Below, in pieces: positions 3,843 to 37,773 of a stretch of DNA of 64,000 nt. Position 1 is the first letter of the stretch. Each line of letters starts with the position of its first letter. This DNA comes from Nitrosopumilus sp. GTDB taxonomy: Archaea > Thermoproteota > Nitrososphaeria > Nitrososphaerales > Nitrosopumilaceae. The notes under the pieces are model-generated. The model did no database searches and was not told the origin of the DNA. It worked only from the letters and a program-made list of their open reading frames with translations. The stretch spans positions 960,001 through 1,024,000 of the forward strand of contig OZ242041.1 of the NCBI GenBank assembly GCA_965205215.1, read 5' to 3'. Made by a program: the position numbers and the translations under genes.

Positions 3843-4106
3843 TCGTCCGGCGGGGCCATCTCCTATACGATCACCGAGACGGACAACGGATATTACAAGT
3901 ATGGATCGGAGTAGGACGACAGCATGGACTCCCGCACCTACGTGGGCGGCGGGGACGTGACATCTAGGTCAGTCAGCCGCCAATAGAAGAACTCAGGATT
4001 GCCTGCTTCCCATAGATGCTTGGGGGGTCTGCGACTGCGCACACCCAAAGGTCAACCGATGACTCTGCAGTGACTACACGGTTCTGCCCTGACGCCGTTA
4101 TCCCCC

Positions 4107-5960
4107 TCAGTTCTCCAGACGTATTCTGCGCCTGATCAGGAACCTTTCGCCTGCCAGGTCCCTTACCAAGTCCCATCCTTTTGCGGTGCACGTCAGCAGC
4201 TCGGCCTCTCCGTCGACAATCCTACTCTCAAATGGGGACGGCCCTGCATCCGGCGCCCTGCCGTCCTCTGCGGTGGCATCTGCCGTCTGCGCCCCTTCCT
4301 CTGCAGCGGACGGCCTTTGGACTGTATTCTTCAAAGATGCGGCGGATGCATCTGCATCCCCTTTGCGCGCCGCACCGCCATCTTGCGCGAGCGTTACGGC
4401 GGCGGCGGCAGCCGCAGGCAGCGGCGCCCCCGGCGCCCCGTCCAGCGCGCCACCGGAAAGCATGGCATCGGGATCCAGCCCGTACATCTTGGCCTGCTGC
4501 CTCCACATCTCGACCAGCATCTTGCGCCTGTCCTCATCCGTGTCCTGCGTGACATCGGTGGACAGGAACGACTGGCTGCGCTCGTACGAGCGCCTCATGT
4601 CCTCTGTCATCTGCTCTGTAAGCTTGCCCTTGTTGGTGGTGTACCTGGCCTCCATGTCCCCCTTGTGCCCCATGAAGAACTGCCTGTACGCGTGCGTCAT
4701 GCACCCGTGACTCTCGGCAATCAGCAGCTGGCTGTCAAAGTACGCCCTCAGCGCATAGGGCCGCACCTTGAGCACGCTCCAGATCACGGGGCGCACCGCC
4801 GTTGAGATGACGTTCGTGGTCAGAAACCTGCTTGTATTGCCGTCCAGCTTGCTCCATCCCTTGAGGCGGTACCCATAGTGCGCCGCCACGAGCGGGGAAT
4901 CAGGCTTTAGCGTCTCGCCGCGCGCCATCCGCTCCCGCAAGTACCCGAGCACGTACTTGCAGCCCTCCTCTGCCAGGAATGTAAAGTACTTTTTTCTGAT
5001 CTTGCTGAGCTGCGGCCTCACCACCACCATTGCGGGGATTCTGGAGAAGCGGGTGTCGGATCCGTCCAGTACCAGGTCCGGCAGGTCGGAGAGCGCCAGC
5101 CCGTCGCTCTTGTCTGCAAGCCCCATGACCTGCGGCCTCATCCCAGAGAAGGCCATCATGCTTATGATCGCCCTGCACCGCGGATCTGCCGCATCAAGCA
5201 TCTTTCTGAGCTGCGCCCTGTCGGGCACCATCTCGTTTTGTATGCTTGTCGGCACTTCCATGTTTGCAATCCTTATCTTGCGCCGGATGTCGATGCGGTT
5301 GTATTCAAACCAGGACTTTATTGCAGTTATTGTTCCCTTGATGTATCCCGGCGCGTATTTCTTTTCTTCCATCCACGACACGTGGTCCAGCAGTATGTTT
5401 TCTGCCATCATGGGATCATCCCTTCCATCCTCTATCAGCTGCTTTGGCGTCATTCCCACTCTCTCACAAAAAATATTGAGTCGCCTGAGTCTTATGCTGC
5501 TCGTAAGGAAGCTTGACCTGCGCATGTTGTCGTGCCACCTTCTTACGTCGGGGTCGTTTAGCAACAGTTTTGGCGGATTTTTAGTCATGCGGTTCCAACT
5601 GCGTGGCCACCGATCTGATTTAAGGGGTTTTTTCTTATCCGTATTCTTTCCTGCCGGCGGCGGGGCCTCTTCAGACTCGGGCGTGTAAGCGCCGGGTTTG
5701 GTGGACGGAGTACGCGGGAATTTGGCAGTCGATTTACGACTCGGTTTACTGTTGCACGTATTACGCTTTGATTCGGTCTTTCCAGGCTTCGTAAAACTGT
5801 TCACTTGTTCGACAAACCCCTTCGGGCCCACTCTTACATCCGGATCGGGCCCGTTGCTCCTGCTTTGGTTACTGGCTCTGCTGCTGCTTTTGCTGCTCAC
5901 GCTGCTGGTACTGCAGCACGACTTTGCCGTTTGGAAGCGTGCCTGCAAACGTCCACGCAC
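4107..5960 (-). CDS. tyrosine recombinase/integrase 1 (5' end crosses the putative att site; internal ATG at 5588)
   Basis: SGMRP (catalytic R), LSK, PYALRAYF, FMGH, RYT (catalytic Y); paralogous to 6018..7430. Confidence 0.9.
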   Translation of the reverse strand: MRGRLQARFQTAKSCCSTSSVSSKSSSRASNQSRSNGPDPDVRVGPKGFVEQVNSFTKPGKTESKRNTCNSKPSRKSTAKFPRTPSTKPGAYTPESEEAPPPAGKNTDKKKPLKSDRWPRSWNRMTKNPPKLLLNDPDVRRWHDNMRRSSFLTSSIRLRRLNIFCERVGMTPKQLIEDGRDDPMMAENILLDHVSWMEEKKYAPGYIKGTITAIKSWFEYNRIDIRRKIRIANMEVPTSIQNEMVPDRAQLRKMLDAADPRCRAIISMMAFSGMRPQVMGLADKSDGLALSDLPDLVLDGSDTRFSRIPAMVVVRPQLSKIRKKYFTFLAEEGCKYVLGYLRERMARGETLKPDSPLVAAHYGYRLKGWSKLDGNTSRFLTTNVISTAVRPVIWSVLKVRPYALRAYFDSQLLIAESHGCMTHAYRQFFMGHKGDMEARYTTNKGKLTEQMTEDMRRSYERSQSFLSTDVTQDTDEDRRKMLVEMWRQQAKMYGLDPDAMLSGGALDGAPGAPLPAAAAAAVTLAQDGGAARKGDADASAASLKNTVQRPSAAEEGAQTADATAEDGRAPDAGPSPFESRIVDGEAELLTCTAKGWDLVRDLAGERFLIRRRIRLEN

Positions 5961-6017
5961 CGGATATTATCAGGCGCTCCGCGGCATCTGACTCGACTAC
6001 CGTCTGCCTGGCGCATC

Positions 6018-7430
6018 CTACGTTGCCAGCGCCACCGCCTGACCCTGCATGTTGCCGGCGCGCCTTAGCGCCTCTAGCATCAGGTCAAGCTGCTCTGGCA
6101 CTGCGTTCTGTATCATCTCGTGCATCTCCTGCTGCTTGTGCTCTTTTGCGGCCCGCAGTTCTGCGCGAGTCGCATTGCCGTTGTCCTCCAGGTCGAGAAA
6201 CTCTTCGGACCTCGCAAACGATTCGCGCATCTCCTGCGCCAGCATCTCAGGCAGCATGCCCTTGTTCGTGGTATATCTTGCCTCCATAGACCCCTTGTGC
6301 CCCATGAAGAACACCCGGAAGTCGTGGGCGATCATGCCCTTGGACTCTGCAATCAGCAGCTGCGTGTCAAAGTACGCGCGCAGCACGTACGGCCTCCACA
6401 AAAAGCGGGGGCGGAACGTCTTGCGGATCTCCTTGCTTATGTGCGGCGTGAATATGAACGCCCTGTGCGCGCGCCTGCCCATGTTCTGCGGATGCCTGTG
6501 GTCGGGCGCAATCACGGCAGAATCTCCGTGGAGCGGCTCGCCGCATGCAAGCCTGTCGTTCAGGTACGCGAGCAGCTTGGTGGTACCAGACGCCGTCAGG
6601 AACGTAAAGTACTGGTGCCTGGTCTTTGACAGCTCGGCGCGCACCGTAATCCGGCACGGCGCCCTGATGCACTTTGCCACGCCCTGGTGTATCACCACGT
6701 CGGGCAGGTCGCGCATCCGCAATCCGTCAGAACCGTCGTGATTTCCCATAACCTCTGGCCTGACGCCTGACTTTGACATCAGCGAGATCATGGCGGCAGT
6801 CCGCAGCGGCGCCCTTGCAAATACCTCTGCAAGCTCGCCCGCGTTGGGGACGCGCTCGTTCTGCAGCGTCGGCGTCTGGTTCATGTTCCTGATCTTCACC
6901 CTGCGCCTTATCTCGACGTCAAAGTGCGACAGCCATGACTTTATGGCCTTTACGTAGCTGCTGACGTAGCTTGGCGCATACTGCTTTTCCTCCATCCACG
7001 TGATGTGGTCCTCTATCAGGTTTGTAACTGTCCTGACGTCCTTCATGCCTAGGTCTGCAACTTCCATCGGAGTCATCTCGTGCGTGCGGCAGAACATGTC
7101 AAGGCGCCTGAGCATCGTGTCTGCCGTAATGGCGGATCCCCTTGACATGTTGGCGTGCCACCTGCTGATTTCCGGATTGCTCAGCATCCGGGCCTTGTTT
7201 GACGTCTTTGCAGGTCGTCTGCAGTCGTTGTCGTCGTTTCTGTGTTTGACAGTGTTGTTGTCTGTAGTGGCTGAGTTGTGGTTTCCCATATCGGTCAGCC
7301 TCTCGGCGACTTCATCCTTGCATGCCGTATGGTCTGACTTGCTTATTTCGCTTTTGCACGCGCCCGTGCGTGGGGGTTGATCGCAGTATGTATCGAGCGT
7401 TTCACAGCACGCCTTTCTGTGCGTTTCCAT
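6018..7430 (-). CDS. tyrosine recombinase/integrase 2
   Basis: SGVRP, LSK, PYVLRAYF, FMGH and RYT catalytic motifs; N-terminal core-binding region. Confidence 0.92.
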   Translation of the reverse strand: METHRKACCETLDTYCDQPPRTGACKSEISKSDHTACKDEVAERLTDMGNHNSATTDNNTVKHRNDDNDCRRPAKTSNKARMLSNPEISRWHANMSRGSAITADTMLRRLDMFCRTHEMTPMEVADLGMKDVRTVTNLIEDHITWMEEKQYAPSYVSSYVKAIKSWLSHFDVEIRRRVKIRNMNQTPTLQNERVPNAGELAEVFARAPLRTAAMISLMSKSGVRPEVMGNHDGSDGLRMRDLPDVVIHQGVAKCIRAPCRITVRAELSKTRHQYFTFLTASGTTKLLAYLNDRLACGEPLHGDSAVIAPDHRHPQNMGRRAHRAFIFTPHISKEIRKTFRPRFLWRPYVLRAYFDTQLLIAESKGMIAHDFRVFFMGHKGSMEARYTTNKGMLPEMLAQEMRESFARSEEFLDLEDNGNATRAELRAAKEHKQQEMHEMIQNAVPEQLDLMLEALRRAGNMQGQAVALAT

Positions 7431-7523
7431 GCTATCTTATTATAATCTAGCATATATAAAGATGTCTTAATTTAAGCCAGCAAGCAAGTGTTTAAAAACG
7501 GTGTCGCATCATAAGACAGCAAC

Positions 7524-7775
7524 ATGACGCTGATAGTAAAGACCTCCAGAGGCGCCAAGTACCTGTACTTTCAGGCGGGCCCAAAGTCCCTGTACATTGC
7601 GCCAAAGGACGACCCCTCAAAGGCCAAGACGGAGAACGTGAAAAAGGCCATCGAATACACGCAGGAGAGGATCAAGCACTACAACGAATCCCTTGACGAG
7701 CTTTTGCAGTTTCTTCCGCCCAAAGAGCGCAAACCATATGCCGTACCTAGCAACCGAATTCGCAACAGTACCTAG
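7524..7775 (+). CDS. small basic protein divergent from the integrase (possible DNA-binding/directionality factor)
   Basis: 83 aa, KYLYF...SLYI beta-rich N-terminus plus a helical C-terminus; TTTAAAAA box upstream; function is inferred. Confidence 0.6.
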   Translation: MTLIVKTSRGAKYLYFQAGPKSLYIAPKDDPSKAKTENVKKAIEYTQERIKHYNESLDELLQFLPPKERKPYAVPSNRIRNST

Positions 7776-8188
7776 AGACGTGGGGTAACCGTTCAATCTC
7801 TCCCAAAATTTAGGTATAGATTTCACTATAGTCAAGAGCAAAAGTTCATGAGCAAAGATTTGCTCTAGACCGAACTGCCAAGAACTGGTGACCTGTGATA
7901 GGCTGTCAAAAGAGTGACCTAACTACTGTGTCCTAGGACTGGTAAGTTATAGTGGCCTGAAATCCTCTGAAAAGCGGGGAGCTGGAGGATCAGTACTTGT
8001 ACAATAGATCTGACTGCAATGATCGGCAGTATTATAACTGCACTCGTCCATATGATCGCAGAAAATGATTATTACTCTGGAAAAATCAAGGACGGTTGGC
8101 ACCCGTAGCTCATTCGCCCGACAGCTCCCGAATTGGAAGTGGAACCGCCAACAAATATTCTTTTATACGTGTGTGGCGTATCATATTC

Positions 8189-8305
8189 ATGTCGGAAACC
8201 AAGGGCAAGGGAAAATCCACCTCCTACCAAGGTCTGCTTAAAGGGAGTGTCGAGGCGCAAGGACCAGTGGGATCAAAACCAAAACGTCTCCCGCCAGAAA
8301 ATTGA
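8189..8305 (+). CDS. 38-aa peptide coupled to the downstream membrane protein
   Basis: ATG 8189 with TTTTATA about 27 nt upstream; stop overlaps the next start (TTGA). Confidence 0.45.
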   Translation: MSETKGKGKSTSYQGLLKGSVEAQGPVGSKPKRLPPEN

Positions 8306-8850
8306 CAGATGAGCTATACACTATATCATCGGAATACATTTTATTCATAATTTTTATGGTTCCTGGTTTTATAGCGGTAAAGCTGTTTATTTTTTTCTCA
8401 TATTATGAAAAAACAATCACCTCGTTCAATACTGCATATTATAGCCTGACCGTCGGAGCAATCTCTTATTTCAGTACTCGCTTTATTTCAGATCAATCCC
8501 AGAACGAGATCTTGGTGTTTGTAGTGACAGTGATTATCTTAGCTGTAGCTGCTAGTGGGGCAGGGTGGATAAAACGAAAACTTGTGTCAAAAGGAATGGT
8601 TAGAAACAGTGCATGGGATAACTTTGTGATGAGGGAAGTTGGCACATACATAAGAGTGAAAACTGCAGACGGCAAGATTGTTTACGGCTGGTTAAAATCT
8701 GCATCGACTGATGCCCACAAAAACCACGACATCGTGATTAATGAACCATACATATTACACGAAGGGAAGGAGAAAAAGATAGGAAAATCCATGTTCATAA
8801 ATTCATTGGCTATAGTTCACATATTGATTCTAGATTCGGATCCGATATAG
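8302..8850 (+). CDS. membrane protein, DUF6338-like
   Basis: IFMVPGFI, three hydrophobic segments, then SAWDNF..YIRVKTADGKIVYGW, as in DUF6338-type proteins. Confidence 0.7.
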   Translation: MTDELYTISSEYILFIIFMVPGFIAVKLFIFFSYYEKTITSFNTAYYSLTVGAISYFSTRFISDQSQNEILVFVVTVIILAVAASGAGWIKRKLVSKGMVRNSAWDNFVMREVGTYIRVKTADGKIVYGWLKSASTDAHKNHDIVINEPYILHEGKEKKIGKSMFINSLAIVHILILDSDPI

Positions 8851-9084
8851 TAAGCGCCTTTAATCAACTATCTGCCAGACGGTGCATGAATGCTCCGATC
8901 CAAACTTCATCCCAAGGTAGTGGATCATACTAAATAGCGGTGCGCTTGGTACGGTTTGCCAAACGATCCGGCCGGGCATACATGGAATGAAGGTTATCTA
9001 ATATGCGCTATTATGATTAATTATTTAATAGTAAATTATGAAGTACTGACTTGAACTATGACGATTCAGTAAAGTGACTTAGAA

Positions 9085-9333
9085 TCAAAAACCATCAAAC
9101 GGATCTCTACTAGATGTGAGAGAGCCGGCGACACCGACAAAAACATGACGAATACACCAATACCTAGCATTTCTGTGGTCACAGTTCTCACAATCGTAAT
9201 TCCGTTCGAGACTCTCTTCACAGCATTTCTTGACGTAAAATTCTGTGTACGCGCTATCAGGCGGATATGCCGTTATCTTCCTACCGCAATTATCACATGA
9301 GAAATCTTGGTTTGTCTTCTTTTCTGCCAACAT
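9085..9333 (-). CDS. Cys-rich zinc-binding protein
   Basis: CDNC, CC and CENC motifs. Confidence 0.65.
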   Translation of the reverse strand: MLAEKKTNQDFSCDNCGRKITAYPPDSAYTEFYVKKCCEESLERNYDCENCDHRNARYWCIRHVFVGVAGSLTSSRDPFDGF

Positions 9334-9335
9334 TC

Positions 9336-9497
9336 TTACCTCATTTGCCTTTTCTGCTTCCAGTCAATGTCTTTTCTCGGTCTGTCCCAGTAAGGGCTTT
9401 TGCATTTGGGACAGACTCTGGGATTGGATTCGTTCCTTGGAACCCATTTGTGGAAACATCGTTCGCATTGGTAACCCTCCAGCATTATCTTTGTCAT
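9336..9497 (-). CDS. 53-aa zinc-ribbon protein (not in the ORF track)
   Basis: Manual translation MTKIMLEGYQCERCFHKWVPRNESNPRVCPKCKSPYWDRPRKDIDWKQKRQMR; CxxC/CPxC pairs; AT-rich TATA-like sequence upstream. Confidence 0.7.
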   Translation of the reverse strand: MTKIMLEGYQCERCFHKWVPRNESNPRVCPKCKSPYWDRPRKDIDWKQKRQMR

Positions 9498-9542
9498 GGT
9501 TTTAGTATATTACTAGTAGTATATAACTATTTTTAACCCCGA

Positions 9543-9915
9543 CGCTGGTGCGAATTCGTGACTTGCTAGGTACGACGAGAGACCTGGAAAGCTAGTGTGA
9601 GCTGATCTTCTCTAGAAACTATCTGGGGCCGACTGCATGCGGTGCAGGGCATTAGTTGAAGCCTCCTGCTAGTCCCGCCCTGTGAAAAGCGCAGCCGCGA
9701 TCTTAAAGAGTGTACTGAGAGGACGGTGGGGAAGGGGTGCTATATGGTACTAAGGGCGCTTGTGTCGCGTGACGGTAATGCATACATAGGCACAGGTGCA
9801 ATTTTTGTTGATTGGCAACAACAGAGCCCACGTTGAACGACAGACTGGCAAGCATCTTGGACAGGCGCAGCTGCTGGAGCGCACTGCCGGAACAAACTGA
9901 CGAATTGGAGGACGG
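9543..9915. repeat. left arm of a ~370-bp imperfect inverted repeat (partner 12772-13143)
   Basis: Reverse-complement alignment; 61-bp perfect core 9651-9711 = rc(12976-13036). Confidence 0.9.
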
Positions 9916-12644
9916 CGGGCAGATCGACGTACTGATCAAGGAGCGCGGCTGGCCACACGTGATCATGGAATGCAAGATCGGCAAAAAGCCGGAGGATGTG
10001 GACAAGCGGTTTGACAACACATTCAAGGACAAGACGAAACCCGGCATAGTATTTGAGGTAAAGTATCCGGAATGGCTGCGCCGCGCCGGCGCCGGAAAAC
10101 TTGAGGATGCAACGCTCTGGTACTGCGTATGGTATAACAAGCATACTAGGTTTCCGAAGGACGGTTGGCTAGAAGGTACTGCATACGATCTCGCGACCGC
10201 CGTCCAGTATTCAAGAGAGTTCAAGGGGTATGCGGAGGGTGCAACGAAACTGCATGATGCGGTCATGGAAGCGGCATCCGCAATGAACGTACTGTCGAAG
10301 AAGATACAAAAAAGTATAAGCCACATAATGGAACAGGAGCGATCCATACAGACGCATGCCACTGCAGCCCTCGTGGTCGCGGGCGCGCTGAGGTTCCACG
10401 ATACTGCAGCAGAGTCGCACGATGTCGAGCTGATTGGCAGCATGCTGGACAGCGAGGGTTACATCAACACTGCAAAACTCGTACCCGCGTGGAAGGAGAT
10501 ACTGAAACACGACTACTATCCGATATTCTCATCGGCTCTGCAGATCATAAGCGAACTGCCGCAGGATACGGCCTCGAACATAGTCAGGCTGCTGCACCGC
10601 GCCAACGGCGATCTTGCGCGCATACACCTGAGCAACTCATCCGACCTGTACGGGCAGACATACCAGCAGATAATCTCCGACAGGAAGAAACTGGCCGCAT
10701 TCTATACGAGGCCGCCGTCGGCAGCCCTCTTGGCCGCCGTCTCCGTACCTGACAAATGGCGCGATTCCGAGTCGCTGCGGAATGTGCGCGTCGCGGACTT
10801 TGCATGCGGCACGGGCACGCTGCTACACACCGTCTACAGGCAGCTTGCGGCCAATTATGAGATCGCCTCCGGGCAGCCCATGGCCTCCATGCATTCGCAC
10901 ATGATGGCCAACTGCCTGATTGGCGCCGACGTGCTGCCGATTGCAACCCACCTGACGGCCGCCGTACTGTCAAACACGTATCCAAGGCAGCCGTACGAGC
11001 AGACCCGCATATTCCAGCCCCGGCAGGGGACAACAGACCACAAGATAGGCTCGCTTGAGTGGATAACCGAGAGCGCCAAATTGGATGAGAGCGAGACCCA
11101 TCTTACCGGCGTTGGCGAGCAGGGCACGAGCACGCCGCCGGCGCACGGCTCGTGCCACGTCGTAATCATGAATCCCCCGTATTCCCGCTCGCAGGGACCT
11201 GGGGGACGTACCGGTTCAGGCAGTGATGTCGACGGGGGGGGGGGGAGACCCGGTTCAGTTGTTCACGGCGTTTGGCGCCACCGACAAAGACCGAAGAAAG
11301 ATGGGGGAACGCGCGACCGAGCTGTTCAGGCCGCCGACAAAGACCGTAACCAGAAGGACATACTGCGCGGACAAGCGCGCAGGCCTGGGCACGTTCTTCA
11401 TGGATTTGGCGCACGCCAAGCTCGGGAAGGGCGGGAGCCTGGGCCTCGTCCTGCCGATGACTGCCGCAACCGGCGTAAACTGGAGAAAGTTCCGCAGCAT
11501 CATTGAAACCGAATATACGGATGTGATAGTATTCAGCGGGAGGTTCTCTGCCGACACCGGCATGAAGGAGATCATCATATCGGCCAAGAAACTCAGGGAA
11601 GACGAGGCACCGTCCGGACGCGGGGTGTTCGTGTCCCTGGACAGGCAAATTGACACCATACTGGAGGGTGTCTGCATAGGAAAGGCGGTACGCAATCTAT
11701 CCATGCTGTCGCTTGAGGATGCCATGCAGGGGAGCACGCGCATACTGGTGGGCGATGACGAGATGGGTTCTGCACTCGACTGCCCGTTGCAGGACGGATG
11801 GCATACCGTGGACGCGGCGGACTTTACGCTGCACCAGATCGTGCAGCATTTGAGGCAGGGCAAGCTGTACCTGCCGTACATGTCGTCCCTGCTTGACCTC
11901 GCCACCACCACCATGTCTGAAATTGCGGACGTGGGTCCCTCTGATCTTCAGATTCTCGGAGGCGAGGCCCAGCCGGGAAGGACCACAAGCTATTCCGGAC
12001 CGTTCAACCTGCGTGATTATAATCCACGCAGCACATACTCGACGCTTTGGAGTAACCACAACAAAACCCAGCAGCAGATGATAGTAAGGCCGGACCATAC
12101 ACTGGAGCCGCGTAAAAACTGCAATGTCGACAGCATAAAGAGACTCTGGAGAACCAGATCGAACATACACATGAACGTCACTACCGACACCACGTCCCAG
12201 GCACTGATGATGTCCTATACGAAGAAACCCGTGGTCGGCGGAAGAGCGTGGCCGAGTGTCATCACAAAGAGGAAATACGCCAAGGGGCTTGCTGTCTGGT
12301 GCAATTCAACACTCGGCATACTGTGCAGGTGGGCAATGTCAAACCACCAGCAGGTAGGCAGGAGTACGACATCACGCACCGCCCTGAAGGACCTGCTCGT
12401 TCTGGCGCCGTCCGGACTTGCATTGCTTGGCGAGGTGTTTGACGAGTTTGCCGAAAAGAAGTTTGACCGCATAATGAACCTCTGGAAGGACCCGGTGCGC
12501 ATTGACATGGACACGCATATGCTAAACCGGCTTGGCGTCGGAGGTGTTGACTTGGATGACTTGCGCGTGCGCCTGTGCGCAGAACCATCCATGCATGGAA
12601 GAAGACAGATCACCGAGTTGGAATCTGCACTGGCAGACAACTAA
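9812..12644 (+). CDS. Type IIG-like fused restriction endonuclease/N6-adenine methyltransferase, frameshifted at a G12 tract
   Basis: PD-(D/E)xK-like IDVLI..IMECKI; FYTRP; motif I DFACGTG; motif IV MNPPY. ORFs 9812..11506 and 11223..12644 join if G12 (11234-11245) loses one G. Confidence 0.85.
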
Positions 12645-12771
12645 CAGACACTGGTAAGTTAGTGACCTGAAATTTCTGAAAAGTCGGTGATCTAGGCGTG
12701 GGGTTTGGTGGCTGCCTTTGTTGCCGTCTGTATCATGATCGGTCACTTGTTCTTGCCCTCTGGATCCTATC

Positions 12772-13143
12772 ATCTCTCAATTCGTCAGTTTGTTCCGGCA
12801 ACGCGCTCCAGCAGCTATATCTGTCTAGAATGCTTGCCAGTTTGCCGTTCAGCATGGATTCTGTTATTGCCCGTCAGCAACAATTGTGCCTGTACCTATG
12901 TATGCAGTACAGTCACGCGACACAAGCGCCGTCAGTACCATCTAGTGTCCTTTCCTTCCACCGCCCTCTCAGCATACTCTTTAAGATCGCGGCTGCGCTT
13001 TTCACAGGGCGGGACTAGCAGGAGGCTTCAACTAATACCTTACACCGTAAGTAGTCGGTCCCAGATAGTTTCCAGAGAAGATCGTCTCCATATAACTTTC
13101 CAGTTCCTTTGCCGTGTTTAACAGGTCACGACTTCGCACTAGT
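12772..13143 (-). pseudogene. right arm of the long inverted repeat: decayed copy of the RM promoter region and first ~33 codons
   Basis: Minus strand reads ...MLNGKLASILDRYSCWSALPEQTDEL vs RM TLNDRLASILDRRSCWSALPEQTDEL; start TTG is changed to CGG and a stop follows soon after. Confidence 0.85.
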
Positions 13144-13978
13144 ATCTACGAAAAAGTGCTGGTGCAAATTCGTGATATGGAATCTAGGCACACCCGCAGG
13201 CACGACGCAATCAGCAAAATGCCCACCGCGGCGGCAGGCATTGTAACCGAGGGCGCCAACAAATGGAAAACCATCATTCAGAACAGCAACCTGTACCTCA
13301 TGGCGACTAACCAGAGGGTCTGATCACGAGAGTGTCGGAGACATCCGTTCTAACCGAAGGCCTGCACGACCAGGTTTGCCATTCTAAAGATGACATCAAC
13401 TATTGTCATTATCTTTTTTGTTCGTTTCATTTTTCTACCTCCTATATGGAGTGGCGATTTTTGCAACCGCCTGAACAACACTTCTTTCCTCAAAATTTAC
13501 TATTCCTGACTTTCTCGATCAGATCCTTGGGGGACTCTGCCACCACTACATCATACTTTATGAGGTAGGTATTAAGCTTGGCTATTGGTTTAAGATGGGT
13601 AAACTTGAGTAAAGATGTGACATGCTGAATCCGCCTCCCGCATCACAGATTCATAGCAGGTTGCGCGGGAAGGCCGTACGGCGCGGATACGGTACTCACT
13701 ACCTACCATGTGGGAGTGCCGGCAATGGGATTAAAATAAGGTGGCAATGCCGTGCCTAGATTCCATATCCCAAACTTGCACCAGTACCCAACTAAGAAAA
13801 ACATATTAGTTCGATAGAAGAATTATAGACATGGTTATTGAGAATTACTTTGATATTACATTTCCATACGCAGATTTGATTCTAAATTATAGTGAGAGTC
13901 TAGCACTGGCATATTCTGGTGCGGCACTTTATGCATTAACAAAAAAAAAACGGATAACTCGGAACGATCATGCAATTT

Positions 13979-14269
13979 TTACGCATGACTAAAACGAGTT
14001 AAAAACTCTAGCCCAGCCTTTGTAAGCTGTATTTCGTAAACCATGTAAACACTCCTTCCTCCAACTTGACGGTGTTTACGCCTTATTATGATCTGGCAAG
14101 ATTCTTCTAGATCGCGCGTTATATCATACCACGAACTAATAGGAATGCCTAGTTCTTGTGCCAGACCAGTAGTTTCAGTGAAATCTTCACCTATTTTTAT
14201 AATGAAATTTTTGTCTTTCAGACACTGTAACAGAACTCGTTTATAGTGAAAATATTTCCCTTTTCGCAT
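13979..14269 (-). CDS. winged-helix (MarR/ArsR-like) DNA-binding protein
   Basis: TGLAQELGIPISSWYDITRDLE helix-turn-helix, wing, then LTKAG. Confidence 0.7.
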   Translation of the reverse strand: MRKGKYFHYKRVLLQCLKDKNFIIKIGEDFTETTGLAQELGIPISSWYDITRDLEESCQIIIRRKHRQVGGRSVYMVYEIQLTKAGLEFLTRFSHA

Positions 14270-14424
14270 TCACAAGTGATGCACCTAGAGATATTTAAAG
14301 CGTATGAGAATCGGTGGTGCGAATTCGTGATGTGGATCAGAGTCTCGACTGAAATCCACATCACAAATTCGCACCAGCACCTTGCATGATATGACATAAT
14401 AACAAGAAGTACCCATGTGTAACG

Positions 14425-14508
14425 ATGGCAAAAGCCAGTAAAGGATCAGCCGGATGGCCTAGTAAGACCGGCAATCCCTCCGGAAAGGGGAGGGACAACA
14501 ACAACTAG
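14425..14508 (+). CDS. 27-aa micropeptide MAKASKGSAGWPSKTGNPSGKGRDNNN
   Basis: Manual translation; follows a site hairpin and precedes a GC hairpin (CCCCCC-GTAA-GGGGGG). Confidence 0.45.
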   Translation: MAKASKGSAGWPSKTGNPSGKGRDNNN

Positions 14509-14811
14509 CAGGGTGCTTTTATCCCCCCCCGTAAGGGGGGCACCCTTTCCAGCAATCAACCTCATGCCATCTGCGATCACGCCTAGCCCGTGCCTGACTC
14601 TACTCAAGTATGTAATTCCCAAAATATTTGAGACTGTTTGAAAGGTGGTGTGGCATGCAGGAGGGCCAATCTGCCCTACTTTTCAGGACGGCCACCGGTT
14701 ACCGGCGGCGGCAAAGGCAGGTCCCCGTTTTGACAGCGGATTACAGGTCACCAGTTCTTGACAACACCCGCCCACGCGACGAGTTATATAGCTGTAAGTG
14801 GTGTTTAAACC

Positions 14812-15087
14812 ATGCATCGGAACATCAGATACTATAGAAACAGCCCTGACTGGAGGCCTTCCCTTGGGGAGGCCATAGACAAGGCTCACTACAGAAACAG
14901 ACACTACCACGCGGTGTGTGATCCGGCCACCGGCGCATGTACAGAACATTATGATAAGCACGACCCTCATGAGTCAATACCGTCCCTTGTGCGACACATG
15001 TGGGACAGCGACCTAGGAAGGTTTGTGTTGGTAGCTCTAGGCATAATCACCGTCGTTGGTACAGCTGCAGTAGCACTGAGAAAGTGA
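14812..15087 (+). CDS. small His-rich protein with a C-terminal membrane anchor
   Basis: TTTAAA immediately upstream, C-terminal hydrophobic helix, T-tract downstream. Confidence 0.65.
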   Translation: MHRNIRYYRNSPDWRPSLGEAIDKAHYRNRHYHAVCDPATGACTEHYDKHDPHESIPSLVRHMWDSDLGRFVLVALGIITVVGTAAVALRK

Positions 15088-15307
15088 CCGTTTCACACTC
15101 CTTTTTTTTCACTACTAAATGAACTCAAGTATACGCCTGATCGTAACGGCTCCCAAATGATATATCTCACACGGCCAAGAAATCTGGTACGAATTCGTGA
15201 CTTCACCCATTGAGAATCATGACGTGATGTCTCCTTCTGGAGGTCACGAATTCGCACCAGTACCTACGAAATACTAGTTATATAGTGCACATTCGGCATA
15301 CCCATCA

Positions 15308-17177
15308 TTGACTCCTATTGCAACCTTGAAATGGCATTTTCCGCCGACCGTGGGTGGGCCAGAGCAGGGGTTCAACGACAGTGGCAAGGAATTCTTTACG
15401 GCGGGCATTCTGGAGCACGTCGTACGGGAGATCATCCAGAACTCGCTTGACGCAAAGGATCCACGGCATCCGGACAAGCCGGTAGTTGTGAGAATGAGTA
15501 AGATCGAACTGGAGCGCAGCGCGATCAACGCCAGTTCCCTCGCAAGGCACGTGGCAGAATCGTTGAAGTCCACCCGGGAAAAGAATAATGAAAAGGGAGT
15601 CAGGGTTTACCAACGCGCACTGAAAATGCTGAAAAGCCGTAAGATACCGGTCCTAGTGGCCGTGGACGAGAACACCACAGGACTGAATGATACGCGCTGG
15701 GCCAGGCTAGTGCACGAGGAGGGCACGACAAGCAAGGACGGCCCCGCGGCGGGCGGAAGCTTTGGCATAGGCAAGAACGCCCCGTACGCAGCGTCCGCGC
15801 TCGGATTGGTGTGCTACTCGACGCATTTCCCGAGCAGGCACCGGACCGAGATGTTCATCGCCCGGTGCAAGCTCGTCTCACATGCGGATCCAGATGACAA
15901 AAACAGGCAGTTGCAGCACGTCGGCCTTGGAACGTCTGAGGATTTTGACGGGAGGCGGTACCCACCAGTCATGGGCCGCGAGATCCACGAGGCGTTCAGG
16001 CTGAAAAAAACGGGCACGGGCATATTCATAGTTGGGTTCAAGGTGGAGCGCGACTGGGAAAAGATCGTCGTGCGCTCCGTGGCACGCAACTTTTTTGCCG
16101 CCATACACGACAAAAAGCTGTCCGTCCAAGTCGGGGATTTTGAGATCACAAACGAGACGCTGAACGACTGCCTTGAAAAGGAGTCCCAGAAGGCGTACTA
16201 TGAACTGTACAGAAACTCCGAGCAGCCGATCGCCGTTGGTGGTGGGGGGGGGGGGGTGGAACTTTTGCCTGAAGATCGCCACCGGCGACGAAAAGATGGG
16301 GAACAGCGTCGCATACGTAAACCGTCGCGGAATGCTGATCACCGCCAAAAAGGGGTTCACCGAGAACCCGTTCAGTGTGCGAATTGACATAGGCAGGTAT
16401 GTCGCGGTCGTCTGGGCCGCCGACGACGACACGGACGCGCGGATTAGGGAGATGGAACCGCCGACCCACGAGTCAATAGAATACAGGCGCATAGAGGAGT
16501 CGGATCGGCGCAAAAAGATAAGCGGCCGGCTCCAAGACGTGTCGAACGAGATCCGCGAACACATCAGGAAGAAGCTGGACCTCGAGACGTTTGATCAAAG
16601 GATGGAGCTCAGAGAGCTGTCGGACATCATACCGTACGTGTCCGATCCGGACAAGGACAACAAGAACGAAGACGATGGAACGAGCAGCCAGCCGAACCAG
16701 CAGATAGGAGTCCGGACTATACAGACCGGGAAGGGGATCATGCAGGCGGACGAGGTGGAAGAAGGGAGTGATGAGGAAACAAAACCGTCAGACGGCAAGG
16801 GTGGCGGGGGAGGCAGACCGCCAGACGACCCACCACCACCCAAGACGAAAAAGACCGCATCCAACATGAAAAACGTCCGTGTGGTGCGCCATGGCGCGGG
16901 GAAGCTCCGCGTGGCGTTCGACACGAAGACGGGCGCCAGCAAGTTCGTGATCAAACCCGCTGGGGAGGAGTACAAGGACGAGGCGCCGATCACCGTTGCG
17001 GCCACCGCGGGCGTGTCGGGCACCGGTGAAGTCGAGATACTGGACAAGAATACGATACGCGTGAACGCCAAACCCTGCTCGCGCGTGGTGCTGGACGTGT
17101 CGCCGGACGGACTGTCTGAATATACCGGCTACACCATACTGGAATACAGGGCTCGGAGGAGAAAGATTTCCAAATGA
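15308..17177 (+). CDS. GHKL/HATPase-family ATPase, frameshifted at a G13 tract
   Basis: REIIQNSLDA (N box), DENTTGL (G1), GGSFGIGK (G2). ORFs 15308..16387 and 16173..17177 join if G13 (16244-16256) loses one G. Confidence 0.8.
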
Positions 17178-18007
17178 ACACCATACTCTTGCCTCACCCC
17201 GTACTGCGTCCCGACGGTACAGACTACCGGACGGGCCTGGGGTTCAACATGTCGCTGACTGGCGAGCCCAAATACACGCTGGACGACAAGATACTGGTGC
17301 CGGTGCGGTTTGACCTGGAGAGCAGGTTCGTACGGGGACTGATACGCGGCGGAAAGGCCCGCATAATCGTGGTCGTAAAGTGCTCCCGCACGTACGAGCG
17401 TATGACGCTTGACGTGGACGTCACAGAAACCACACTGAAGCTCCCACTCGCCCGCTACGCGGACAAGATCAGACTTTTGCCGTACGTGTCCGCCACGGAA
17501 TCCATAGAGCGGTTCAAGTCGCCGGAGCACCACGCCGAGTTCTCCGACGTCGAGATCAATCTGCCCGCAGGCGCCATACTAGCCCGGGGCTCCGACACAG
17601 AACTCACGATAGATGCGTTGCAGACCCTGAGCGCCGCGATACAATTGGTGCCCGACGACAGACTCGAGGACGGGCAGTACGTCATTGATGTCGGGGGCGA
17701 CTACATACAGATATACATGAACGCGAAGACCTGCCGCGGCGTCGATGCCCTGCGCAAGACCAACCGCGGCCTCCTGTACCCGTCAGTCTACATGACTGTC
17801 CTGACGCACGCCATACAGAACGTCACAGCGGATCGCACCAGAAAGTGGGAGGAGGCCCTCAGGAAGACGCTTGAGAAAAACAACATGTGGATTGACGATG
17901 AGAATGACCGGAAAAGCGAGGCGTACGTGCATGCACAAAAACTGCTAAAGCATCCGGTGAGGTTCATCACGGCGGAACCGGCAGGAGGGGCGGACGGCGA
18001 TGAGTAA
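17174..18007 (+). CDS. hypothetical protein (PHPVL N-terminus), operonic with the ATPase
   Basis: ATGA overlap with the upstream stop; overlaps the downstream start. Confidence 0.8.
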   Translation: MNTILLPHPVLRPDGTDYRTGLGFNMSLTGEPKYTLDDKILVPVRFDLESRFVRGLIRGGKARIIVVVKCSRTYERMTLDVDVTETTLKLPLARYADKIRLLPYVSATESIERFKSPEHHAEFSDVEINLPAGAILARGSDTELTIDALQTLSAAIQLVPDDRLEDGQYVIDVGGDYIQIYMNAKTCRGVDALRKTNRGLLYPSVYMTVLTHAIQNVTADRTRKWEEALRKTLEKNNMWIDDENDRKSEAYVHAQKLLKHPVRFITAEPAGGADGDE

Positions 18008-19613
18008 ACTGTACAAACTCACGCCGGGCGCGTTCCACTGGCTGAATGCCAACATAGGGCGCAACAAGGACATGTACGGCGACCCGGATGCCGACTTTGC
18101 CGGACTGCTGGAGCGGGCGGACATCCACGAGTACAGGAAGCCGACAGAAGTAGAGGTCAGGAGCGAGATGACCCTCAAGCCGCCCGAAACCGACGATCCG
18201 AAGAAGGCGCATTTTGCAGACCGCCAGGCCATGGAGTTCTACAAGTGCTTGGAGGGCATGACGCCCCGGCTGGCCTCTGACCCGGAGATCTGGGCTTACG
18301 TGAACCACTTCCATCTGCACGGATACGGGATCCTACGCTGGCCGTGGACAAGCGGCTCGCAGAAATCACACATCCGGATGCACTGGCTCACAGCCAGAAA
18401 CCAGAAGATCTACGAGTCCAGCATCTCGGGCCGTACGTGGTGGATGGTTCACGTGGCGACCAAGGCGGCCGAGGCGTCCAACGGGGCATTCACCGCCGAG
18501 CAGGCGCTCAGACTGTTCGCGGACCATCCGGAATACTACCACCGGAGTATGCAGTACGAAGTGCTCCGCAACCCGATGATACTGGCCGAATGCGTCAGAT
18601 CGCTGCTCACGGACGCCAAGGGAATCAGCCGTGACGGATACGTGCAGATTGCCCGCGAGATAAACCGCGAGGCGGGCGCCAGATTACTGGACTCGGTCAG
18701 GCAGCCCGACGTGCGCAGGCTCGTGAGGAGGTCGTCCGACAGGCTCATGCGCATGCCGGAGTTCGTTCCGGACAGGAGGAACCTCAAGGGCGTAAGGACG
18801 TACAAGGTGCTCAGCCTCGGAGCGGGTACGCAATCGACTGTGATGGCCCTCATGGCCGAGGAGGGGTGGGGCGGCCTAGAGAAACCAGACATCGCCATAT
18901 TTGCCGACACTCAGTGGGAGCCGCCGCATGTCTACGAGCATCTCAAGTGGCTCGAAAAGCAGTTGTCATACGAGGTGGTGCGTGTCACCGCCGGGAACAT
19001 ACGAGAAAACGTGCTCGCCGGCGTGACTCCTGACGGAAACCACTTTCTGGACATGCCGGTATTCCTGACAAACAGGGACGGCACCAAGTCGGTGGCCGCA
19101 AGGCAGTGCACGAACCATTACAAGATAACGCCAATACACCAAGAACTACGACGGCAGTTGAAACTGGAGCCCGGCAGGCGCGCCCCCAAAAACTTGCAAG
19201 TCGAGATGTGGATGGGCATAAGCATGGACGAGTCCCATCGCATGAAGCCGAGCCGCGATGAGTGGATAACCAATAGGTTTCCGCTAGTCGACATGAACCT
19301 CACCAGGGCGCAACTCTACGACTGGTTCGCGGAGAGGCATCCGGGGCGCGAACTACCGCGAAGCGCGTGCGTCGGGTGTCCGTACCATACCAACATGGAA
19401 TGGAAGTGGCTCAAGGAGAACGACCCCAAGTCATTCCGGGACGCGGTGTTTATAGACAGGGCAATACGCGAGGTGCCGCAGATAAAGGGCACGTTGCGCG
19501 GCGAAGGATATCTGCACCGCGAAAGAATGGAGCTGGACAGTATAGACTTCAGCGCGGTTGACGATTATGAGGACTATATGGCAAGCGAATGCGAGGGACT
19601 CTGCGGTGTCTGA
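18000..19613 (+). CDS. fusion: DUF6339-like N-terminus plus PAPS-reductase-like (adenine nucleotide alpha-hydrolase) domain
   Basis: N-terminus ASDPEIWAYVNH...RWP...ISGRTWW; C-terminus SLGAGTQS (PP-loop), FADTQWE, CT..YKI.PI, GISMDE..R, RSACVGCPY, terminal ECEGLCGV. Confidence 0.75.
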   Translation: MSKLYKLTPGAFHWLNANIGRNKDMYGDPDADFAGLLERADIHEYRKPTEVEVRSEMTLKPPETDDPKKAHFADRQAMEFYKCLEGMTPRLASDPEIWAYVNHFHLHGYGILRWPWTSGSQKSHIRMHWLTARNQKIYESSISGRTWWMVHVATKAAEASNGAFTAEQALRLFADHPEYYHRSMQYEVLRNPMILAECVRSLLTDAKGISRDGYVQIAREINREAGARLLDSVRQPDVRRLVRRSSDRLMRMPEFVPDRRNLKGVRTYKVLSLGAGTQSTVMALMAEEGWGGLEKPDIAIFADTQWEPPHVYEHLKWLEKQLSYEVVRVTAGNIRENVLAGVTPDGNHFLDMPVFLTNRDGTKSVAARQCTNHYKITPIHQELRRQLKLEPGRRAPKNLQVEMWMGISMDESHRMKPSRDEWITNRFPLVDMNLTRAQLYDWFAERHPGRELPRSACVGCPYHTNMEWKWLKENDPKSFRDAVFIDRAIREVPQIKGTLRGEGYLHRERMELDSIDFSAVDDYEDYMASECEGLCGV

Positions 19614-19935
19614 CATAGTTTCGCGGCTCTCGGACCGCCCGGTTCCATTTGGGCGCATGTCCTACGAACACGTTGACGAGTCGCCCGGACTCTACTGCTT
19701 CTGGGTCCGCGGCGCGTGCCTGTACGTCGGCATGAGCATGAACCTGAGGAGGCGCCTGAGGGAGCACTGCGAGGCGGAGGACAACGTGCAGCTCGCCGAA
19801 TACTTTGAAGCGTACGGTTCGGAGATCGGGGCGGTGACTGTATATCATGACGCCCCCGAGGCGCGCCTGCGCGAGCTGGAGTCGGAGGCGATAAGAAGGA
19901 TGCGCCCGCTGACAAACAGACAGGGGGCACCATGA
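19606..19935 (+). CDS. GIY-YIG nuclease
   Basis: PGLYCF..LYVGMS.NLRRRL.EH...LE..I...P..N; likely GTG start at 19606. Confidence 0.8.
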   Translation: MSDIVSRLSDRPVPFGRMSYEHVDESPGLYCFWVRGACLYVGMSMNLRRRLREHCEAEDNVQLAEYFEAYGSEIGAVTVYHDAPEARLRELESEAIRRMRPLTNRQGAP

Positions 19936-21146
19936 CTACCACGTATCCCGCGCTACGCGCAAGGTTCGGAACCACCGCGTACTACGTGGTGACCATGCGG
20001 GTCTCAGAACTGGTGGGCAGGATACAGTTCCCAGCGAAGCTGCCCGAGTGGGAGGATCTCTCGATTGAGGGGCAGTTTCAGAGAAAATTGGACGTCGGCC
20101 GCATCCGACGCCAGATGGCGCCATACTTTGCGACCGATGAGAGGAGATTCTCAGGCTCGCTTGTGGTGGCCGTGCAGGGGCTGACAGGGAAGGAGTTTGA
20201 GAGCATACGCGACATCACAACGAAACCACTTCCCGCCGCATACGGCACAGCCGCCAGTGACCTCGGGTTCCTGACACTCGACAGCCAGAAGCTCATTCCA
20301 CTCGACGGCCAGCACCGCGCCAAGGCGTTTCAGTTGGCTCTGGAGGAGGGGGACTCAGGGCTTGCTAACGATGGGATCTCCGTGATAATAATGGATTTTG
20401 AGAAGTCGCTCTCGAGGTATATCTTCAACAAGATCAACAAGTACGCTAGGCCGACATCAAAGGCAGGCAAACTGATAACCGACGACGACGACGCCATGGC
20501 GGTCATTACGCGCGGCCTGATAACGGATGAAATAATCCCAAGAAGGCTGGTCAACTTGGAGTCTAACTCACTGAACAAGAACGCGCACCACTTTACGCTG
20601 ATCTCCACGCTGTATGACGCCAGCAAGTCCCTGCTGTCCGTCATGCCGGTCAGGGTCGTGGGCAGATCGGAGGACATGGACCGGAAGGAGAGGGAGAGAA
20701 ACCAGAAGGAGATTGCCAAGGAATGGACCCGGTTGCTCTCTGGCATATCCGAGTGGAGAAGGGCGCTGGAAAATCCGGACAAAAAAGGGGACAATTACAG
20801 AATAAAGATGCGCCAAAAGTCTATCTTGGGAAGGCCAATAGGCCAACTGGCGCTGGTAAGGGGGTATGCGTACGCATATGGCAACACGGAGAACGCTGAC
20901 AAGGACGCGATAGTGGGCAAACTGGACAAGATAGACTGGGGCATTAAAAATGACACGTGGAGGGGTTTGTTGGTGAGGCCCAACAGCCGTATGATGTACG
21001 GCTCCCGCGTGGCGACTACCGCGTCTAAAATGATAGCGCACCTTGTCGGCGTCAGTCTTCCCAAGAACGTACAGGAACAGCTCCTTGACTCAATCCACGG
21101 GGCCGCCCGATCCCCCCGCAGAAAACTTCCAAAGCCCGTGGGCTAG
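19932..21146 (+). CDS. DGQHR-domain (DndB-like, ParB/Srx superfamily) protein
   Basis: FQRKLD..R, literal LDGQHR, F.KINKYA. Confidence 0.85.
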   Translation: MTTTYPALRARFGTTAYYVVTMRVSELVGRIQFPAKLPEWEDLSIEGQFQRKLDVGRIRRQMAPYFATDERRFSGSLVVAVQGLTGKEFESIRDITTKPLPAAYGTAASDLGFLTLDSQKLIPLDGQHRAKAFQLALEEGDSGLANDGISVIIMDFEKSLSRYIFNKINKYARPTSKAGKLITDDDDAMAVITRGLITDEIIPRRLVNLESNSLNKNAHHFTLISTLYDASKSLLSVMPVRVVGRSEDMDRKERERNQKEIAKEWTRLLSGISEWRRALENPDKKGDNYRIKMRQKSILGRPIGQLALVRGYAYAYGNTENADKDAIVGKLDKIDWGIKNDTWRGLLVRPNSRMMYGSRVATTASKMIAHLVGVSLPKNVQEQLLDSIHGAARSPRRKLPKPVG

Positions 21147-21465
21147 TTCCATGTCTACGGATCCGCGAAGGCCTGTAGGTGTAATCCTGCTTAGGTCGCC
21201 CCGCTCACACACACCCGCCGGCTATCTTAAACTCCGTGTAGTCGCATTCGGAGTACGTCGCGTCGTCTCCCCTTGGAGGGGGAGGGGGAACGTATACAGG
21301 CGGCCGCGTCCCAGTGAATGCTTGGGCATAGTTCTTGTCGCAGCGGTAGCGATACTGATGTATTTTTAAGTGGACAATCAATTAGTGAAAAAATTGTGGT
21401 CGGGATACTGTAAGCGTCCCGGTTCGCTCCCTGTCGTCTATGCATGGGCCCGATCCAGCATCCGG

Positions 21466-21549
21466 CTAGGGGCCCTTCGGGCCCATTCCACTCTTTTTCG
21501 AGTTGTTTTTGACTCGATCTTTGCCGCCTGATTCTGTGCCCGTCAACAT
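21466..21549 (-). pseudogene. putative displaced N-terminal fragment of integrase 1
   Basis: Reads MLTGTESGGKDRVKNNSKKSGMGPKGP*; crosses the att repeat in the same frame as VGPKG of integrase 1; TTAAAT at 21576-21571. Confidence 0.5.
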
Positions 21550-21713
21550 GCAGATTCGGGGGAAAGTGAGATTTAACCCTGCTGGTTGGGATCGAGCTAC
21601 TTTCGGGCTCGAACTCTGTGAATCGTAGATCTTGAGAGGCCCCGTTCCCGCCGGACGCTCGCCCGCGTCAGACGGTGATGATTATGTGTGTTTGGTCCAA
21701 ATTTTGCCCTATT

Positions 21714-37649: not shown

Positions 37650-37773
37650 TGCGATTCCTGGGTTCACCAGAGGCTTCCCGTAGCATGCATTGCAATGCGG
37701 AACCGCGTGAGTATTACGTCCCTATGTTATAAAAGTCTTATTTCAACGGGTTCTAGTTCCAATTCGGTTGCTA

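Follow-up and report, generated by a model that had tools for sequence, protein, structure and literature searches.

Tandem integration at tRNA-Met(CAT) very probably accounts for a split integrase gene in a Nitrosopumilus genome

A 64,000-nucleotide (nt) stretch of a Nitrosopumilus sp. genome (assembly GCA_965205215.1, contig OZ242041.1, positions 960,001 to 1,024,000; hereafter the window) contains a minus-strand gene, integrase 1, whose reading frame crosses a 13-nt sequence that recurs to its right beside a short leader in the same frame. A preliminary description, made from the letters alone, held that the DNA between the two copies, here called element B, sits inside the integrase gene of another element, which it parasitises or switches and which its excision would restore; tandem integration at a tRNA gene outside the window was its second choice. 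The question raised by this locus is whether an element has entered an integrase gene or whether the gene was divided in another way. We consider it very probable that the window covers the middle and right part of a tandem array of about 64.8 kb, formed by three integrated elements (A, B and C) at tRNA-Met(CAT), and that integrase 1 is split by its own design, with the attachment (att) site inside the gene. Coordinates are window positions unless prefixed G000, which denotes the source genome (a single contig of 2,098,239 bp with a GC content of 0.60, in which the window is G000:C1:960001-1024000).

On the minus strand, an open reading frame (ORF) of 617 amino acids (aa) with a GTG start (4107-5960) reads ...DVRV-GPKG-FVEQ... 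across the left copy of the 13-mer, which is CCCTTCGGGCCCA on the plus strand (Table 1). Outside the right copy, the minus strand from an ATG at 21549 reads MLTGTESGGKDRVKNNSKKSGMGPKGP and then stops, and a TTAAAT box lies 27 nt 5' of this ATG (21576-21571). Scripted joining at the 13-mer with B removed gave an ATG-started ORF of 595 aa. Likewise, a 595-aa ORF was obtained when the integrase 1 body, int(C)1, was joined in silico to a leader found beside the tRNA-Met gene (see below). All sequence statements of the preliminary description on the 13-mer, V-GPKG-FVEQ, the 21549 peptide, the TTAAAT box and the 595-aa join were reproduced.

Taken alone, a 13-nt direct repeat within 26 kb is unremarkable. 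The repeat list of the window held 49 families of direct repeats 13 nt or longer within 26 kb, and, with up to one mismatch, the 13-mer had 2 matches in the window against 0.22 expected, a number that was also reached in 2 of 100 shuffles. Such figures would suit a chance repeat with a coincidental in-frame reading. Across the 2.1-Mb genome, however, the 13-mer occurs only three times, always on the plus strand and within less than 40 kb (G000 941515, 965818 and 981473, the latter two being window 5818 and 21473). The first copy forms the last 13 nt of a tRNA-Met(CAT) gene (G000:941454-941527 by ARAGORN; Rfam tRNA, 57 bits), located 24.3 kb left of 5818 and 18.5 kb to the left of the window. 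Because there are only three copies, on one strand, and the first is a tRNA 3' end, the repeat is not due to chance; the homology of its flank to a tRNA-proximal module and the leader-core-integrase fusions found elsewhere, both described below, also refute coincidence, to which we give next to no credence. The earlier remark that the core resembles a tRNA 3' end was borne out, since the search of the genome's tRNAs that it called for led to tRNA-Met(CAT) and to a sequence that is not frequent genome-wide.

The surroundings of tRNA-Met were inspected in seven loci of relatives, four of which (L010, L012, L014 and L016) were compared with G000 by blastn. A conserved C/D-box sequence was present about 44 nt 3' of the tRNA in five of the seven (the same four and L015); an integrase-like ORF followed the tRNA in L011 and unrelated sequence in L013. 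In all four loci compared, the small RNA (sRNA) sequence mapped to window 46343-46402 (G000:1006343-1006402) with 87-90% identity, and the next genes mapped to 46488-47672 with their order kept. Rfam returned 13 sub-threshold matches at 46343-46402, every one to a C/D-box family. As the relatives' sRNA is found at 46343, about 64.8 kb have been inserted between tRNA-Met and its usual neighbour, and the 64.8 kb from the tRNA to about 46300 are missing from the relatives. A VWA gene upstream of the tRNA was also tried as a synteny anchor and was rejected; it lies away from tRNA-Met in the two closest relatives. The inserted DNA comprises segment A (tRNA-Met to 5830; 24,290 bp; GC 0.55), segment B (5831-21472; 15,642 bp; GC 0.54) and segment C (21486 to about 46300; about 24.8 kb; GC 0.63), compared with 0.60 for the genome.

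The right flanks of 13-mer copies 1 and 3 share 89% identity across 147 nt, and the leader is present beside tRNA-Met at G000:941528-941591. Read in the integrase sense, this leader module, or int(N), consists of a conserved palindrome, GGGTTAAAT, about 20 nt, a 22-codon open frame and the tRNA-derived core. G000 has six copies, and a search of 40 other genomes of the genus found none, so the module is not host sequence. In addition to the two copies above, weaker copies follow tRNA-Val(TAC) (G000:751453) and tRNA-Ile(GAT) (G000:1897618), a truncated one lies at G000:1276253-1276366, and another adjoins an integrase paralogue at about G000:1999902. We surveyed 18 modules in four genomes, namely the six of G000 and 12 of three others reached via integrase loci. 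Eight of them adjoin complete tRNA genes (three Met, three Val and two Ile), two are fused to an uninterrupted integrase, five adjoin only a short tRNA-tail-like sequence, and three are truncated or unclear. Among the 12 from the other genomes, five adjoin complete tRNAs (Met(CAT) twice, Val(GAC), Val(TAC) and Ile(GAT)), one is fused to an integrase (L125, identical to L024), four adjoin tail-like sequences of tRNA-Lys or tRNA-Ile, and two are unclear (L123 and L127); the four tail-like calls were made by eye, and an exact 12-mer match to the tRNA-Lys(CTT) tail of G000 was present in L120 only. A 17-nt piece of the module gave 82 matches in metagenome contigs, which were discarded as chance matches because blastn found a true module in 0 of 80 fetched loci. 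The most conserved block of the module, AACCAGCAGGGTTAAAT, lies directly upstream of the TTAAAT box (21577-21618 and the other copies), where an 8-10-bp inverted repeat, GAGTTCGA...TCGAACTC, is also found. To judge from its layout, this block with its inverted repeat looks like an operator through which integrase expression would be regulated.

Homologues of integrase 1 numbered 736 at E<=0.001. They carry the source labels Nitrosopumilus, Thaumarchaeota or Nitrosopumilaceae, and some sources name them 'site-specific integrase'; public sequencing runs with matching sequence are mostly sponge metagenomes. G000 contains three genes of the integrase 1 type: integrase 1 itself, a 577-aa ORF (G000:1991434) whose GTG start lies exactly at the core, and a 603-aa ORF (G000:1998160-1999971) in which leader, core and body are uninterrupted. 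The latter two have the same core as tRNA-Ile at G000:1897618, TCATCGGGCCCA. Both belong to DNA of about 104.6 kb at tRNA-Ile(GAT) (G000:1897695-~2002300), which thus holds one split and one intact gene. For five of six relatives' loci with the tRNA tail, the neighbouring gene of tRNA-Ile falls at G000:2002406-2003131; because of this position of the relatives' neighbour, we take the DNA to be a second array and the 603-aa gene to be a junction inside it.

In other genomes, 11 of the 14 integrase-1-type loci returned were examined. L024 (= L125) and L027 show an uninterrupted leader-core-integrase arrangement, and the cores of the uninterrupted genes, including the 603-aa ORF of G000, are tRNA-Ile- or tRNA-Lys-like 3' ends. 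The integrase begins at the core with unrelated DNA upstream in L023, L025 and L031. In L026 (tRNA-Ile-GAT) and L028 (tRNA-Val-GAC), the integrase body comes directly after a sense tRNA, whose end the reading frame crosses without a stop; the remaining loci align from later residues only. The proposal that the 21549 peptide is a genuine N-terminus gained support from the homologous leaders fused to integrases at G000:1998160-1999971, L024/L125 and L027. Annotated starts vary among the homologues: the Met equivalent to 5588 is used in P0004, P0006 and P0023, and other proteins are annotated from the att position (P0009, MGVGPRGP...; P0008 and P0011, MVAGLKGLG...).

Sequence searches did not identify integrase 1 as a recombinase; only the fold search did. 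Pfam, at E up to 10, returned no recombinase-relevant family for integrase 1 and none for integrase 2, sequence and profile searches of integrase 1 against the PDB returned no recombinase, and the NCBIfam XerA model scored 19.3 bits against a cut-off of 220. An AlphaFold2 model was built from a 23-sequence alignment, starting at the att core. Its mean predicted local distance difference test score (pLDDT) was 69.4; most of residues 82-460 exceeded 70, apart from short dips at 193-199, 320-333 and 391-401, and the first 81 residues stayed below 50. Foldseek gave 31 PDB matches at E<=0.001 for this model, led by XerA (5hxy, E 3.7e-7) and including IntI (2a3v), archaeal Xer (4a8e), Cre and XerH. 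R232, K277, R362 (in Y359-A-L-R362), H389 and Y397 are invariant in the 23 homologues and stand in the expected order, their roles being assigned by pattern. The predicted fold, which combines a helical core-binding domain with a catalytic domain, indicates that integrase 1 is a divergent tyrosine recombinase with an Xer-like fold. Its first 81 residues are highly variable among homologues, which would explain why any tRNA end could be tolerated at the 5' end of the gene.

Integrase 1 belongs to a family of tyrosine recombinases of Nitrosopumilaceae whose genes, as we propose, consist of a promoter/operator module, the 22-codon leader, the att core, a putatively disordered linker of about 80 aa and the recombinase. 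The core is a tRNA 3' end in antisense that is read as M/V-GPKG. Because this core lies in the 5' end of the integrase gene, recombination with the tRNA would keep the module and leader at the tRNA and carry the int(C) body, now without its promoter, to the opposite end of the element. Segment A shows exactly this layout, with the leader at the tRNA and the body at 4107-5817. The junction of a tandem pair would carry int(C) of one element and int(N) of the next; the leader right of copy 3 would belong to element C, and B would have taken the junction position between A and C by using the same tRNA-Met core. Three integrations would be required, in any order. The repeats, the identity of the tRNA, the homology of the modules, the uninterrupted relatives, the synteny limits and the fold are shown by the data, whereas recombination activity, the order of the integrations and expression are inferred.

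The seven aligned modules bear on where translation would begin. The frame from leader start to core is open in all seven, and the substitutions are codon-like: one position alternates between I, V and D, arginine and glycine codons change at the third base only, and lysine is kept (consensus M-L-T-G-T-x-S-G-G-K-[DVI]-R-[VI]-K-x-D-S-x-K-x-x-M). In archaea, a TTAAAT box at -27 fits a leaderless mRNA starting at the leader ATG. These features suggest that the leader is translated. An alternative is that the leader is untranslated, the integrase starts at an ATG or GTG on the core edge, and the 135-nt module is promoter, operator and 5' untranslated region, so that integration unplugs the promoter only. 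Consistent with it, six of the seven modules have an A before TGGGCCC, which puts an ATG on the edge of the core, the integrated copies integrase 1, G000:1991434 and L023 start with GTG-GGC-CC, database homologues such as those beginning MGVGPRGP... and MVAGLKGLG... are annotated from the core, and the module is most strongly conserved upstream of the TATA box. Moreover, the leader begins with ACG followed by TTG in three of the seven, and translation could instead start at the ATG that overlaps the edge of the core. Given the open frames, the codon-like changes and the promoter spacing, we regard this alternative as rather unlikely, while keeping it in mind.

Element B carries an intact integrase of its own, integrase 2, which is about 42% identical to integrase 1 over the alignable core and thus a paralogue. 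G000 has five integrase-2-type genes. For each of the five, a sequence of 13-16 nt that matches the 3' region of a tRNA (Met, Lys-CTT, Lys-TTT, Val-CAC or Arg-GCG) lies 139-259 nt beyond the stop codon and runs convergently to the gene. Second att copies delimit a 23.3-kb element at tRNA-Val(CAC) and an 18.5-kb element at tRNA-Arg(GCG), and tRNA-Lys(CTT) has three copies. Since all five genes stand beside tRNA 3' ends, B would target tRNA ends and not integrase genes, which marks it, by these comparisons, as an ordinary tRNA-targeting (type II) element. In the reconstructed attP of B, the 13-mer lies within an inner palindrome, GGGCCC-TTC-GGGCCC, flanked by outer 11-nt inverted repeats.

These data allow the two proposals of the preliminary description to be compared. 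Its geometry held: int(C)1 on one side and a leader module on the other border B exactly, and taking B out gives the 595-aa ORF. The cause that it offered, namely that B specifically enters the integrase gene of a paralogous element and so parasitises or switches it, with excision reactivating integrase 1 and B supplying a replacement N-terminus, did not hold. Such a target could have existed, as an uninterrupted junction occurs elsewhere in the genome, and integrase 2 ends 57 nt before the GTG at 5960 on the same strand, so that co-transcription is possible and read-through could express int(C)1. Yet the 13-mer at both ends of B corresponds to the tRNA-Met 3' end and has a copy in the tRNA itself, all five integrase-2-type genes adjoin tRNA 3'-end sequences, and the same order would result from an initial integration of B at the tRNA, followed by A and C at its left and right att sites (attL and attR). 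The 43 codons that B adds upstream of the V codon show no similarity to homologue N-termini or leaders, and an 11-nt insertion after 5850 in a related contig (run X1) would break their frame. By our own estimate, an open stretch of this length is expected by chance in about 1 in 8 cases, and the extension is probably fortuitous; an apparent alignment of residues 3-43 of the 617-aa ORF to paralogues was rejected, as the tblastn extension runs through stop codons. Together with the tRNA-side leader that also yields 595 aa and the 64.8 kb missing from relatives, these observations leave integrase-gene targeting unsupported, and we consider it quite improbable. The second choice of the preliminary description, tandem integration at a tRNA outside the window, fits better, given the third 13-mer copy, the 89% identical module and the 64.8-kb insertion. 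The junction gene would be rebuilt by excising A as well as by excising B, and the state of the junction is best seen as a by-product of tandem integration.

Several points besides the possible start at the core edge weigh against the tandem array with a self-splitting integrase. The order of integration is ambiguous (B first and then A and C, or an A-C tandem first and B later), and this possibly leaves room for a true insertion of B into a rebuilt integrase gene. Element C is placed as a third integrase-1-type element from its leader module and one 210-nt segment shared with A; a tblastn search of 36000-46400 with integrase 1 found nothing better than E 1 where an int(C) would be expected, after 36439-36646, and the right end of C has no recognisable att core or integrase remnant, its right att site presumably having eroded. 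Part of C, including an ATP-binding cassette (ABC) transporter operon, could be relocated host DNA. The sense tRNAs of L026 and L028 are unexplained by a simple antisense model; the core there is inverted relative to L027, and the palindromic core centre, TGGGCCCA, might permit either orientation. Finally, the 5830 to 21473 joint was absent among the 15 joints listed, out of 41, for four runs, in assembled contigs, which cannot show rare excision products. Contigs of runs X12 and X13 bridge both att copies as assembled (window 3500-22500), and exact-pattern scans found the B-less junction in no metagenome contig and the B circle junction in no viral contig.

The arrangement resembles the type I ('suicidal') integrases of SSV, pTN3 and pT26-2, for which passages of PMC8371274 and PMC7253208 (Badel et al. 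2020) describe an att site inside the integrase ORF, separation of int(N) and int(C) by tRNA integration, and a catalytic domain in int(C). Unlike these, integrase 1 has no Pfam match (PF16795 included, at E up to 10), no SSV integrase was among the listed fold matches, and its host is a mesophilic, sponge-associated Nitrosopumilaceae archaeon. Its core measures 12-13 nt compared with 40-50 nt in the SSV type, and its split removes only 22 codons and the promoter, so that int(C) keeps every folded domain. In the portions of PMC8371274 considered here, suicidal integrases carry PF16795 and have a single origin, and they have been presented as mainly a trait of hyperthermophilic archaea. Judged from these sequence comparisons, the integrase 1 family would work in the manner of type I but shows no homology to the PF16795 clade. 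Rebuilding of an intact suicidal integrase gene by tandem integration has been predicted, and according to PMC7253208 it was never observed; integrase-1-type arrays do occur and rebuild an intact gene. Element B is like the pNOB8/lambda-like type II, with an intact integrase, an att site 187 nt past its stop and the 13-mer at both ends matching a tRNA 3' end; unlike the pNOB8 type, integrase 2 lacks a Pfam Phage_integrase match, and the left att partner of B is the end of another element, with no tRNA body.

In thaumarchaea, according to parts of Krupovic et al. 2019 (PMC6563490), att sites are short (8-26 bp), tRNA 3' ends are targeted in 39 of 68 elements, arrays arise through site re-use, NitEve-E7 lies within E6, and NitEve-E3 has one SSV1-like split integrase. 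The same parts contain no mention of an integrase family with att in a 5' leader or of rebuilt junction genes, although the supplementary tables may list relatives. A literature search returned no paper combining suicidal integrase with Nitrosopumil-. Among bacterial parallels, integration of myxophage Mx8 alters its own integrase gene, intP, in which att lies at the 3' end, in a different family; circle junction promoters of insertion sequences (IS) and integrative and conjugative elements make expression depend on the joined, circular form.

A split integrase in a mesophilic thaumarchaeon outside the SSV family, together with rebuilt tandem junctions, is in our view moderately novel. It may be that recombinases of mesophilic, sponge-associated Nitrosopumilaceae independently evolved an att site in their own gene that unplugs promoter and leader, that arrays rebuild the integrase, and that B re-silences one junction, with int(C)1 57 nt downstream of integrase 2; we see even chances for this broader proposal. 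A mesophilic ammonia-oxidiser with self-splitting logic in an unrelated-looking recombinase family and a rebuilt junction could serve as a natural system for excision control. Tandem integration would account for about 65 kb of strain-specific DNA at tRNA-Met and about 105 kb at tRNA-Ile, bringing putative defence systems and a giant adhesin-like protein to a sponge symbiont, and it largely accounts for what had been framed as an element inside an integrase gene. Genes of the integrase 1 family are routinely given wrong starts, which should be considered in annotation.

Table 1. Features of the window discussed in the text (window coordinates).
Feature	Position	Strand	Evidence or remark
DDE transposase (IS) in element A	87-1280	-	Pfam DDE_Tnp_1, E 3.3e-19
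Palindrome-rich segment downstream of integrase 1	3641-3850		92.9% identity over 210 nt to 36439-36646 (blastn)
int(C)1, integrase 1 body, distal end of element A	4107-5817	-	ORF, homologues, fold
att copy 2, A/B junction	5818-5830	+	Identical to last 13 nt of tRNA-Met(CAT)
In-frame extension from GTG 5960, left end of B	5831-5960	-	43 codons upstream of V codon
Inverted-repeat partner, left	5842-5852		GGATCGGGCCC; would flank the reconstructed attP of B (predicted from sequence)
Integrase 2 of element B	6018-7430	-	470 aa, intact; stop 187 nt from att copy 2
DUF6338 protein, B cargo	8302-8850	+	Pfam E 2.3e-12
Type IIG-like methyltransferase, two overlapping ORFs	9812-12644	+	PADLOC REase_MTase_IIG E 4.9e-8; split at G-run 11229-11245 (family D12)
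Defence-type operon of B	15308-21146	+	PDC-M33A, PDC-M33B, PDC-M33C fused to SspD-like PAPS (3'-phosphoadenosine-5'-phosphosulfate)-reductase domain, DndB-like protein
Inverted-repeat partner, right	21446-21456		GGGCCCGATCC; would pair with 5842-5852 (predicted from sequence)
att copy 3, B/C junction	21473-21485	+	13-mer copy
int(N) module	21486-21618	-	22-codon leader (ATG 21549), TTAAAT box, conserved upstream palindrome
MITE (miniature inverted-repeat transposable element)-like repeat, ~190 nt	21694-21898		30-nt terminal inverted repeats; 87-89% copies at G000:1109692 and 1227627; inverted repeat I6
4590-aa surface protein, segment C cargo	22311-36083	+	Pfam DUF285 in 16 stretches, K319L-like PKD in 19 stretches
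Palindrome-rich segment copy in C	36439-36646		Matches segment after integrase 1 in A
C/D-box sRNA-like gene	46343-46402	+	Host flank after tRNA-Met in relatives; right limit of array

Inverted repeats I4, I9 and I13 of the repeat list fall in the palindrome-rich segment behind integrase 1, and related copies lie near other integrase genes. Perfect palindromes of about 45 nt, of the GGTTACCCGCAAAG...CTTTGCGGGTAACC type, were found near integrase genes and att sites of integrated elements; members of this family occur at window 3567-3850 and 36439-36646 and at G000:907290, 625496-626197, 630101, 959140-959419, 1127761-1128215 and 1897977.

The cargo of element A left of the window (L001 1751-19049) includes two CAP-domain proteins, an Hsp70-like protein and a MazE-like antitoxin. 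Element A also encodes three proteins with 2H-phosphoesterase (2'-5' RNA ligase-like) domains; in one of them the domain is joined to a double AAA ATPase that resembles IetA (PADLOC E 2.2e-58). From these similarities, the cargo of A may be a defence island.

In element B, the PADLOC E-values along the defence-type operon were, in order, 5.7e-67, 4.2e-16, 1.3e-30, 6e-17 / 1.3e-15 and 2e-26, and Pfam matched DndB (E 2e-36) and DUF6339 (E 1.4e-18); the PDC-M33 set is a candidate defence set. PDC-M33A consists of two ORFs split at a G-run (16240-16256). Runs of 12-13 G occur at 11229-11245 (IIG-like methyltransferase), 16240-16256 (PDC-M33A) and 22241-22257 (the ORF that precedes the giant adhesin-like protein), in each case at the meeting point of two overlapping ORFs that belong to a single gene; the contig of run X12 is one base shorter at 22246. 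The G-runs reflect either phase variation or homopolymer assembly errors. Inverted repeats of 363 nt (9545-9907 and 12778-13142, 82-84% complementary) enclose the methyltransferase ORFs, and an 18-22-nt motif, CTGGTGCGAATTCGTGAC, has eight copies in B in both orientations (region 9545-15265). The inverted repeats and the motif may mark a segment that can invert, or may serve as binding sites.

In segment C, the gene for the 4590-aa protein has a GC content of 0.65-0.70, and its predicted product looks like a strain-specific surface adhesin. The right part of C (36909-45765) encodes a DUF3800 protein, an IS630-type transposase and the complete operon of a branched-chain amino-acid ABC transporter. 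Beyond the array, a 5S rRNA gene is located at 51951-52070 on the minus strand (Rfam, 78.2 bits). Elsewhere in the genome, a tRNA-Lys(CTT) array has three tail copies over about 98 kb (G000:605451-703699).

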